Shown: piece after piece, positions 36,297 through 59,330 of the stretch
Layout of the letters: the number at the start of each line of letters is the position of its first letter
Numbering within the stretch: the stretch's first letter is position 1
Origin: Octopus vulgaris
Lineage: Eukaryota
NCBI GenBank assembly: GCA_951406725.2
Contig: OX597818.1
Location: 124,558,001-124,622,000, forward strand
Length of the DNA stretch: 64,000 bases
Reading direction: 5' to 3'
Program-made: the position numbers and the translations under genes
The notes under the pieces: model-generated
The model's database searches: none
What the model was told of the DNA's origin: nothing
Seen by the model: only the letters and a program-made list of their open reading frames with translations

Positions 36297-36298
<2 letters not shown>

Positions 36299-36565
36299 CA
36301 ACAATCAAGGAACGGCCATAATAGGCCATTCACCCACTAGAAATAACAGCCAAAAGCTTTAACCGCAAAATAATGACATTATTTTGCGGTTAAAGCTTTT
36401 GGCTGTTATTTCTAGTGGGTGAATGGCCTATTATGGCCGTTCCTTGATTGTTGATGTTGAACTTAAAAATGGTTTATGACTATTTAATTTTTTCCCACTA
36501 GGCCGCTGGTGGCAAAAGAATTCTACAAAATTTTTTTTTTGCCACCCTATATTGATTAATTATTA
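36297..36565. mobile_element. Perfect 159-bp palindrome plus unique tail in (TA)n
   Basis: 36297-36455 is a perfect 79-bp-arm palindrome centred on 36376. (TA)n on both sides. Confidence 0.7.
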
Positions 36566-36818: not shown

Positions 36819-36865
<47 letters not shown>

Positions 36866-36868
<3 letters not shown>

Positions 36869-37225
36869 CGGAGATGTACTCGCATAGCTAGTAATTTGAT
36901 CTGAGATCGTGTGCTGAAACAAAAACAATTGCAGTGTGGAAGGTGTTTGTAAGCCATTTAAGAAACACACAAAAGCCATTCGATTCACTTCAACATTTAA
37001 GTTTAATTTGTCAAAATATTTTTGTCGTTAAAATCCGCGACCTGTTCACTGACAAAAATCTGTGCTGCATCTGATTTTGTCAGCATGGATTTTTGTCAGT
37101 GAACAGGTCGCGGATTTTAGCGATGAAAATATTTTGACAAATTAAACTTAAATGTTGAAGTGAATCGAATGGCTTTTGTGTGTTTCTTAAATGGCTTACA
37201 AACACCTTCCACGCTGCAATTGTTG
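36866..37225. mobile_element. Fold-back HHR element nested in the (TA)n tract of a SINE
   Basis: Arms ~36924-37067 and ~37081-37224, with an HHR variant in each arm. Confidence 0.75.
37092..37141 (+). ncRNA. Hammerhead ribozyme motif with G3-C8 core swap
   Basis: TTTGTCA-GTGAACA-G-GTCGC(GGATTTTA)GCGAT-GAAA-ATAT-TT|TGACAAA. 7-bp stem I, palindromic stem III AATATT. An inverted copy lies at 37007-37056. Confidence 0.65.
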
Positions 37226-37493
37226 TATATATATATATATATATATATATAAACGACAGGCTTCTTTCAGTTTCTATCTGCCAAATCCACTCACAAGGTT
37301 TTGGTCAGCCTAAGGCTATAGTAGAAGACACCCAATGTGCCATGCATTGTATTTAGAATCATTCTTTACAGATATCTTATTTTATTGGTAAAATAAGTAC
37401 TTTGGCATCATAGACTTCACCTCTTACCTTCATACCTCACTAATTCAAAATTTTGCTCCAAATTTACTATTGTTATCATCAGTAAAATGGATG

Positions 37494-56899: not shown

Positions 56900-59330
56900 G
56901 GGTTTTGTGGAAAGAAAACAGAAGGGAAATGAATGAATAAATAAATAAATAAATAAATAAATAGGACAAAAAGGAAAGCAAGAAACAATGTAAAAAAACA
57001 AGAAAACAAAAAGGGGAAAAAATATATATATAATGAAAGGAATGATGTGAAAAAACAAGAATGAAATAAAGAAAAGAAAAGAAATACAATAGGTAGAGGA
57101 ACAAAAGAAAATAGAAAATTAGGGAAATAAATGAATTATAAAAATAAAAGCAAAAGTATAGAAAATTTAAGAGATGAAAGAGGAGAAAGGGGGAAAGGAA
57201 TATAAATGTAATGAAAATATCTATAAAAAGAAGGAAAGAAAGAATGAACAGAATATAGAAGAGAAAGAAATATAGAAACTAACAGGAAGGGAAGAAGAAG
57301 AGAGGAGTGAAAGAGATATAGAAACATAATGGAAGGAGGGAAGGAAGGAAAGCAGGAAGGAAGGAAGGAAGGAAAGAAAGAATGAATGGAAGAAGATAGA
57401 AATGAAAGAAATATAGAAACTAATACAATGGAGGAAAGAAGGAAAGAAGAAGAGGGGAGTGAAACAGATATACAAACATAATGGAAGGTGGGAATAAAGG
57501 AAGGCAGGAAGGAAGGAAGGAAGGAAGGAAAGAAAGAAAGAATGGAAGAGTATAGAAGTGAAAGAAATATAGGAACTAATACAATGAAGGAAATAAAATG
57601 AGAGGAGTGAAACAGATATAGAAAAGTAATGGAAGGAGGGAAGGAAGGAAGGAAGGAAGGAAGGAAAGAAGAAAGAAAGAAAGAAAGAATGAAAAAAGAA
57701 GATAGAAGTGAAAGAAATATAGAAACTAACGCAAAGAAGAAGAAAGGAGCAAAAGAGATATAGAAACATAAAGGAAGAAGTGAAGGAAGGAAGGAAGGAA
57801 ATAGGAGTGAAAGAAATATAGAAAGTAACAGGAAGGGAAGAAGGAAAGAAGAAGAGAGGAGTGAAAGAGATATAGAAACATAATGGAAGGAGGGAAGGAA
57901 GGAAGGAAGGAAAGCAGGAAGGAAGGAAGGAAAGAAAGAATGAATGGAAGAAGATAGAAATGAAAGAAATATAGAAACTAATACAATGGAGGAAAGAAGG
58001 AAAGAAGAAGAGGGGAGTGAAACAGATATAGAAACATAATGGAAGGTGGGAATAAAGGAAGGAAGGAAGGAAGGAAAGAAAGAAAGAATGGAAGAGTATA
58101 GAAGTGAAAGAAATATAGAAACTAATACAATGAAGGAAAGAAGATGAGAGGAGTGAAACAGATATAGAAAAGTAATGGAAGGAGGGAAGGAAGGAAGGAA
58201 AGAAAGAAAGAAAGAAAAAAGAAGATAGAAGTGAAAGAAATATAGAAACTAACGCAAAGAAGGAAAGAAGAAGAAAGGAGCAAAAGAGATATAGAAACAT
58301 AAAGGAAGAAATGAAGGAAGGAAGGAAGGAAGGAAGGAAATAGGAGTGAAAGAAATATAGAAAGTAACAGGAAGAAAAGACAGAAAGAAGAAGAAAGGAA
58401 CGAAAGAGATATAGAAACTAATACAATGGAGGAAAGAAGGAAAGAAAAAGAGGGGAGTGAAACAGATATAGAAACATAATGGAAGGTGGGAATAAAGGAA
58501 GGCAGGAAGGAAGGAAGGAAGGAAGGAAAGAAAGAATGGAAGAGTATAGAAGTGAAAGAAATATAGAAACTAATACAATGAAGGAAAGAAGATGAGAGGA
58601 GTGAAACAGATATAGAAAAGTAATGGAAGGAAGGAAGGAAGGAAGGAAGGAAGGAAAGCAGGAAGGAAGGAAGGAATGAAAGAATGAATGGAAGAAGATA
58701 GAAATGAAAGAAATATAGAAACTAATACAATGAAGGAAAGAAGGAAAGAAGAAGAGGGAAGTGAAACAGATATAGAAACATAATGGAAGGTGGGAATAAA
58801 GGAAGGCAGGAAGGAAGGAAGGAAGGAAGGAAGGAAGAAAGGAAGGAAGGAAGGAAGGAAAGAAAGAAAGAAAAAAGAAGATAGAAGTGAAAGAAATATA
58901 GAAACTAACACAAAGAAGGAAAGAAGAAGAAAGGAGCAAAAGAGATATAGAAACATAAAGGAAGAAGTGAAGGAAGGAAGGAAGGAAGGAAGGAAATAGG
59001 AGTGAAAGAAATATAGAAAGTAACAGGAAGAAAAGACAGAAAGAAGAAGAAAGGAACGAAAGAGATATAGAAACATAATGGAAGGGGGGAAGAAAGAAAG
59101 GAAGGAAAAGTGGAAGGAATATAAAAGGAAGAATGAAAAAAGAATGAAAAGCAAAAGAAAGCAAGAGATAGAGAAGGAAAGAAAATGAAGAAATATATAA
59201 AGAGAAAAAGATTGAGGAAAAGAATGAGAAAACAAATAAAAATGAAGAAAACTATGGGCAATGAAAAGAAGAACGAAAGAAAGGAAATGAGAGAGTGACT
59301 TGAATGAAGAAAAAGATGAGAGAATATTAG
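56900..59330. repeat. Purine-rich composite minisatellite
   Basis: Recurrent GTGAAAGAAATATAGAAAC modules separated by (GGAA)n/(GAAA)n, with higher-order duplication. Confidence 0.9.

Follow-up and report, generated by a model that had tools for sequence, protein, structure and literature searches.

Anatomy of the locus

The window, a 64,000-nt stretch of contig OX597818.1 from Octopus vulgaris, carries at positions 36866-37224 a Penelope-like element (PLE) that was inserted as a short foldback and consists of two terminal-repeat arms and a one-sided tail. The insertion sits inside a TA microsatellite, and its 144-nt inverted arms (36924-37067 and 37081-37224) are 96% complementary, with mismatches at 6 of the 144 positions. 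The PLE family of this copy is designated family A, and B, C and D are sister PLE families. Hammerhead positions are numbered by the established convention, and the features of the locus are as follows.

36820-36865, no strand: (TA)n microsatellite, left flank
36866-36923, minus strand: 58-nt tail, confined to the inverted arm and matching the 3' end of family A copies
36924-37074, minus strand: left terminal-repeat arm, inverted, beginning about 25 nt ahead of its own G3
37007-37056, minus strand: left hammerhead copy, decayed; G3 at 37049, C8 at 37044, A at position 12 (37023)
37075-37080, plus strand: short filler joining the two arms, in which the first letters of stem I are repeated; probable microhomology join
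37081-37224, plus strand: direct (right) terminal-repeat arm, without tail
37092-37141, plus strand: right hammerhead, minimal type I; stem I 37092-37098/37135-37141, stem II 37107-37111/37120-37124
37099-37106, plus strand: core strand G3 U4 G5 A6 A7 C8 A9 and an extra G (9a)
37125-37134, plus strand: G12 A13 A14 A15.1, 6-nt palindrome at 37128-37133 and U17 at 37134; predicted cut 37134/37135
37226-37251, no strand: (TA)n microsatellite, right flank

The window copy contains no ORF. Its anatomy combines a terminal repeat (pLTR), a second, inverted copy truncated on its 5' side and a tail on one side, and such tails and truncated inverted copies have been described for PLEs (PMC8557442, in the sections used here). 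Two other repeats were observed in the window. A perfect 79-bp inverted repeat at 36297-36455, beside the TA repeat and 400 nt upstream, may be another foldback insertion, and 57286-59109 is taken up by a compound tandem array, long and rich in purines, whose periods range over about 144-304 nt.

A hammerhead motif with G3 and C8

Both arms read GTGAACA in place of the expected CTGANGA, in agreement with the initial annotation of this DNA. In the right arm, G3 lies at 37099, C8 at 37104 and A9 at 37105, and the 7-bp stem I, stem II, GAAA (37125-37128), the palindrome AATATT and U17 (37134) were all confirmed, and the cut predicted after 37134 is correctly placed. The earlier description of the core was right about GTGAACA and omitted the extra G (37106) between A9 and stem II, a nucleotide typical of PLE hammerheads. 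The first pair of stem II is a G10.1-U11.1 wobble in the window copy and G10.1-C11.1 in family A. The annotation had also treated both arms as full motifs and missed the loss of G12: in the left arm an A replaces this catalytic residue (37023) and the outer stem II pair is broken (37028), so that the whole core is present in the right arm only. The left-arm changes and the right-arm U11.1 lie at or beside family A CpG sites and look like decay that followed insertion.

The conserved core letters (U4 G5 A6, A9, G12 A13 A14, A15.1-U16.1 and H17) are all present in the right arm and in family A, and the left arm deviates at G12. A literal CUGANGA core, with C3 and G8, is replaced by one with G3 and C8, and the motif falls outside the standard pattern, as had been claimed. 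Watson-Crick complementarity between the letters at positions 3 and 8 is kept in every family state, as G-C in family A, C-G in sisters B, C and D, and U-A in a distant family. Rfam at its gathering score gave no matches in the window; at E values up to 10, hammerhead families were absent among the 42 matches obtained. A structure descriptor applied to 854 kb of family-enriched loci gave 144 matches versus one on the reversed sequence.

The host element

With the right arm as query, 1,313 candidates were found in the 2.8-Gb genome, of which 40 were scored. Following the copies upstream, we crossed roughly 1 kb of DNA rich in simple repeats and arrived at the end of a reverse transcriptase (RT)/cysteine-linker/GIY-YIG frame. 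A protein search gave 132 matches, and the family A repeat was present at 19 of 20 loci around ORF matches. In the parent copy (L086), the stop of an open frame of 1,025 codons precedes G3 by about 1.0 kb, and the repeat recurs in inverted orientation at the other end of the element. The GIY-YIG domain of this frame (residues 915-1005) scores above the Pfam cut-off. Pfam RVT_1 gave no match on it, and the frame is assigned as an RT from visible YVDD/DKSG-type motifs and from relatives named reverse transcriptase domain. A protein labelled Octopus vulgaris agrees with this genome at 100% over 212 residues, which makes an octopus the most likely host. A C-x3-C-x2-C linker and TA-repeat targets were both seen. 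A Zn-finger-like cysteine linker between RT and endonuclease marks the Neptune and Nematis clades of PLEs, to which the element may belong; the protein tree carried no named reference elements. The consulted portion of PMC8557442 describes PLEs in matching terms, with TA targets, inverted copies that are truncated on the 5' side and a tail on one side. The first GIY-YIG search result was rejected as the parent and proved to be a different, U3-A8 family.

The initial annotation was supported in calling a hammerhead-type motif, which aligns with the canonical hammerheads of the sister families, and had identified neither the host PLE nor the long hairpin that would bury the motif in a read-through RNA. 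That the motif is a chance look-alike in an AT-rich inverted repeat (a MITE or a microRNA-like hairpin) is extremely improbable. The locus is a near-perfect inverted repeat and Rfam returns only sub-threshold microRNA-type hairpin matches, as such a look-alike might, but both arms belong to a repeat that follows an RT/GIY-YIG frame, the motif aligns with the sisters' canonical hammerheads and the controls gave 0-1 matches. The parent element and the sister-family alignment already refute this explanation. What lies here is a real feature in an ordinary host element with an unusual core, and both the chemistry and the element class were already known.

Tandem direct repeats, as expected of non-LTR retrozymes, are not what the window contains, its pair being inverted. 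Elsewhere, a tandem array (L085:4903-7593, G000:C28) consists of 16 units in direct orientation, each about 170 nt long and containing a G3-C8 motif and a TA spacer. This arrangement is retrozyme-like and dimer-competent, and the cores are intact in the 16 units. No relatives were confirmed in metagenome contigs, and the hammerhead context described here applies to this genome and close runs.

G3-C8 is the state of the family A lineage

The genome was searched with exact core patterns in which positions 3 and 8 were free and 18 exact flanking bases were required, a design that favours young copies. Among 6,348 matches, 5,824 were G3-C8, 349 had G3 with another letter at position 8 and 175 had another letter at position 3; reversed-pattern controls gave none. 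Descriptors built on CUGANGA would accordingly overlook thousands of hammerhead copies in a single genome. A manual tally of the deviant letters gave 61 A3, 30 U3 and 9 C3 (all C3 with C8) for the first 100 listed among the 175 position-3 deviants, and 43 G8, 41 U8 and 16 A8 for the first 100 among the 349 position-8 deviants. No C3-G8 copy occurred among the first 100 of 175 listed, with about 0.4 expected in all, and A3-U8 was found in 4 of 61 A3 copies (p = 0.053). Compensation among genomic copies was rejected on this A3-U8 value and on the lack of C3-G8 among the matches listed.

A second sample was anchored downstream and not chosen by core. It consisted of 75 arms from 70 loci at one contig's start, out of 9,937 matches, with about five of the arms being near-duplicates. 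G3-C8 was present in 48 of the 53 core-spanning arms, the remaining five being different deviants. Four sequencing runs, under four different organism labels, showed no other letter at position 3 or 8 at the 3% level in all rows listed, a listing that lacked one row. On the strength of these three results, G3-C8 is the state of the active family A lineage, and the deviations are independent decay. The check recommended earlier, whether G3 and C8 are both fixed among family copies, thus came out in favour of a family state. Positions 3 and 8 do vary independently among copies, which the initial annotation had regarded as evidence against its proposal; because genomic copies decay after insertion, such variation is an invalid test, and the pair holds between families.

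Within family A, sites that vary between subfamilies are concentrated in loop II (5 of 9 sites, versus 1 of 42 elsewhere in the motif, p = 0.0003), and the single variable site outside the loop is a stem I wobble at which pairing is kept. Conservation of the non-loop motif was not significantly higher than that of the downstream DNA (1/42 versus 12/139 variable sites, p = 0.30).

Copies with G3-G8 are more frequent than expected. Among the matches listed, the ratio of C>G to C>T was 43:41 at position 8 versus 25:83 at other non-CpG C/G sites (odds 3.5, p = 7e-5). The 29 G3-G8 rows are scattered on a tree built from a short alignment, in which 58 of 78 branches are unresolved, and require 22 changes versus a shuffled mean of 24.1. 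Divergence was 4.0% for G8, 4.4% for U8 and 4.7% for A8 copies versus 2.0% for C8 copies. A surviving intermediate G3-G8 lineage was rejected on present data, as these copies are distributed among the subfamilies and their divergence is on a par with that of U8 and A8 copies. C3>G changes are also found in the sisters (2 of 21 in B and 1 of 20 in D). The simplest reading of the excess is a local mutation bias, and an old G3-G8 intermediate may also be its source.

Sister families and covariation

Three sister families were found by a relaxed pattern and through the nearest protein relative, and have related downstream repeat and tail sequences. Family B, with C17, has 17 C3-G8, 2 G3-G8 and 2 U3-G8 motifs in the 21 core-spanning members among 30 copies. 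Family C has C3-G8 in all seven copies printed, together with U17 and a C at position 9, where A is normally conserved in hammerheads. All of its 150 scored matches are 98-100% identical, which indicates a young family, and the presence of C9 in a thriving sister implies that core changes are tolerated in this PLE clade. High-copy family C loci (L157, L158, L159 and L161; for example L161:2947-2990) were observed to have open frames of up to 1,312 codons. Family D has C3-G8 in 15 of 20 copies, these having been chosen by likeness to a C3-G8 query. It agrees with family A in the inner part of stem I, in A7, the extra G and U17, and almost wholly in the flanks, and the seven core letters of the two families differ only at positions 3 and 8.

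In a tree of 28 protein pieces, family A is sister to (D,(B,C)) with support of 100/99; the rows for B and D come from broken remnants next to their motifs, and the link to B is inferred from an inverted arrangement. Protein identity between family A and its sisters is 39-57%. C3-G8 is the near-universal hammerhead state and is present in the sisters, so the swap most likely arose once, on the family A stem lineage. As initially proposed, positions 3 and 8 changed together relative to families B, C and D, with complementarity kept.

An alignment of seven motifs from the four families has 94.8% of cells paired, and in 7 of its 11 pairs both partners differ between rows, including 3 of 5 pairs in each of helices I and II. 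None of 500 shuffles reached as high a value and all slid controls lay below it, although relatedness inflates the count and four of the seven rows come from one family. The 3-8 swap is one evolutionary event, and the covariation count is therefore not independent replication. In a distant PLE family with a 781-codon frame, U3-A8 was found in 10 of 12 loci, and every family state at positions 3 and 8 seen in this genome is Watson-Crick. The U3-A8 loci (L041-L052) carry 781-codon RT/GIY-YIG frames; one of them (L045) has an upstream frame of 479 codons and another (L050) holds a further U3-A8 motif.

Ends of copies and transcripts

The cut site is crossed by 53 of the 75 arms, and no arm has its 5' end within 2 nt of it. 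The ends pile up further upstream: 26 of 75 arms begin 20-24 nt before G3 and none more than 29 nt before it. The tail is present in 32 of 75. In the canonical sister B, 21 of 30 copies span the core and one starts at the site. A cleavage footprint in the DNA copies was rejected because there is no 5'-end peak at the cut site; as canonical family B behaves alike, the pattern neither shows nor excludes cleavage. We infer that uncleaved RNA was copied into these arms as far as its 5' end.

In L080 (3329-3353) and other long copies, a branch-point-like CTAAC and a pyrimidine tract precede a CAG that ends exactly 21 nt before G3. This site is possibly an intron end or an RNA start, and most short copies begin there. 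An intron of a Drosophila virilis element ends at helix I, according to the part of PMC4209133 used here. A spliced 5' exon at an AG/ATG boundary was considered and rejected, the letters before the boundary being mostly explained by the inverted arm.

Among the records that carry the family, none is registered as RNA, and the runs compared were contigs, in which RNA ends do not show. An excess of A>G and T>C over a DNA-type run was observed at L197:150-420 in runs X14, X16 and X17, with an example site at 9%, 33% and 34% in the three presumed RNA runs versus 0.2% in the DNA-type run; the kind of run was guessed and the runs were not matched by individual. This gives a hint of A-to-I editing of double-stranded family A RNA on both strands.

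Folding of the motif and its likely activity

In hammerheads, the chemistry is carried out by the G12 base together with the 2'-OH of nucleotide 8, which is held in position by the 3-8 pair. In the family A motif, the 3-8 pair would still place the 2'-OH of nucleotide 8 as general acid and G12 as general base. Two motifs could complete helix III through the palindrome, and the 16-unit tandem array would be a natural dimer substrate. The calculations were less favourable. In the lowest-energy monomer fold G3 pairs with U17 (probability about 0.675) and stem III cannot close, the palindrome duplex of helix III is very weak (-0.2 kcal/mol) and the expected dimer core was not the energy minimum of the computed cofold. 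A read-through RNA of this locus would form a 144-bp hairpin of -245 kcal/mol versus -13 for the motif, so the copy in the window is predicted to be inactive and would not fold as a ribozyme.

Experiments on other hammerheads bear on the exchanged pair, as given in the excerpts available for these reports. The rate falls 10^5-fold in the G8C mutant and recovers in part when C3G is added (PMC8495972), the C3G/G8C double mutant partly rescues the hammerhead of an Anolis PLE (PMC11167929), and a pairwise mutational scan records strong positive epistasis between the two changes (PMC9901934). The Anolis motif cut only in the presence of its protein, and cutting was dispensable for insertion in vitro (PMC11167929). 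Minimal PLE hammerheads are weak and are thought to work as dimers (PMC4209133; PMC6765202). A G3-C8 variant was reported, as 'data not shown', to be more active with G17 than with C17 (PMC3884650).

On balance, we favour the reading that the window holds decayed foldback arms and an inactive copy, and that the G3-C8 motif of family A probably still self-cleaves slowly, as a dimer or with the element's protein. Somewhat better than even chances can be given to continued cleavage of the family A motif under selection. Most of the RNA that is copied would then be uncleaved. The inherited U17 would have allowed the swap: C17 would trap G3 in a Watson-Crick pair, and U17 is older than the swap because it is common to the C3-G8 sisters C and D. 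This permissive role of U17, a hypothesis drawn from one event, may apply.

A substantial but smaller probability attaches to the view that the motif descends from a hammerhead, no longer cleaves and has kept its fold for another job near the 5' end of the RNA, such as protein binding, stability or template jumping, with core changes fixed under weak catalytic constraint. Copies that run through the cut site and begin 20-24 nt before G3 (26 of 75), the success of family C with C9, and the roughly 3.5-fold excess of G3-G8 copies over the background C>G to C>T ratio would all suit a non-cleaving motif. The same is true of the dispensability of cleavage in vitro for the Anolis element (PMC11167929) and of the proliferation of Naiad PLEs without canonical hammerheads (PMC8557442), as far as the passages used from these papers extend. 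However, two transversions exactly restore a Watson-Crick pair, and the other core letters have been kept since the split from sisters that are 39-57% identical. C8 was also retained through several subfamilies despite frequent C>G changes there, and the G3-G8 copies are scattered on the tree with no amplified lineage.

It is unlikely that G3-C8 and U17 were selected as an adaptive brake, slowing cleavage so that a full-length template survives for copying. Other hammerheads keep only part of their activity as double mutants (PMC11167929 and PMC8495972, in the sections considered) and a G3-U17 trap is predicted in the monomer, as would suit a brake, but canonical sister B also inserts mostly uncleaved copies and U17, being present in the C3-G8 sisters C and D, is older than the swap. 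Family A is abundant, with 9,937 downstream-pattern matches versus 319 for B, for which patterns and ages differ; abundance, however, has many other causes.

Relation to known hammerheads

The C3-G8 pair was proved by an engineered swap, and a natural family-wide G3-C8 state represents evolution using the same swap as the laboratory proof. The closest published counterparts are the minimal type I hammerheads in the pLTRs of metazoan PLEs (Cervera and de la Pena 2014, PMC4209133), in which the terminal repeat also lies behind an RT/GIY-YIG frame. From the portion of that report considered, they have in common with family A the extra nucleotide 9/10.1, G10.1-C11.1 and a palindromic, rudimentary helix III, as well as opposite-strand pairs and mostly truncated copies. 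The natural core variant reported there is U3-A8, whereas family A has G3-C8, a 7-bp stem I and a UUU triplet, and the alignment rows consulted in PMC4209133 contain no G3-C8 motif and no cephalopod.

Natural 3-8 covariation, as found here, is also known from U3-A8 hammerheads (Perreault et al. 2011, PMC3088659). Those arose by two transitions, whereas the present case involves two transversions that exchange purine and pyrimidine, and G3-C8 is unnamed in section 8 of that paper. Engineered C3G/G8C mutants, in the Anolis Poseidon PLE (PMC11167929) and elsewhere (PMC8495972; PMC9901934), have the identical core swap with partial or strong rescue in the text examined; unlike those constructs, G3-C8 is here the fixed natural state of a high-copy family. 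The small PLE hammerhead variants of Lunse et al. 2017, in the part of the summary in PMC6765202 drawn on here, resemble family A in their diminished stem III and PLE association, and cleave as dimers, as family A may.

No natural G3-C8 hammerhead was found in the full texts searched, and the alignments or supplements of Lunse 2017, Seehafer 2011, Hammann 2012 and Przybilski 2007 may contain one. None was present in the portions consulted of PMC13481778, PMC11014351, PMC13282606, PMC10085705, PMC6155905 and bioRxiv 2026.07.22.740005. In the literature searched, G3-C8 is an engineered variant only, and natural U3-A8 was already published. We tentatively suggest, as a possibility with the balance somewhat against it, that family A provides the first natural catalytically active G3-C8 hammerhead and that its lineage crossed a two-transversion fitness valley helped by the inherited U17. 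If this is true, one genome would hold three of the four Watson-Crick 3-8 states (C-G, U-A and G-C) and a C9 variant, a natural series ready for testing what PLE hammerheads do. Family D, with nearly the same flanks and a canonical core, would form with family A a clean contrast for selection on cleavage. Further canonical C3-G8 minimal hammerhead-like motifs were observed in other repeat families, at L023, L084 and L089 (all on the minus strand) and at L145, L149 and L164.
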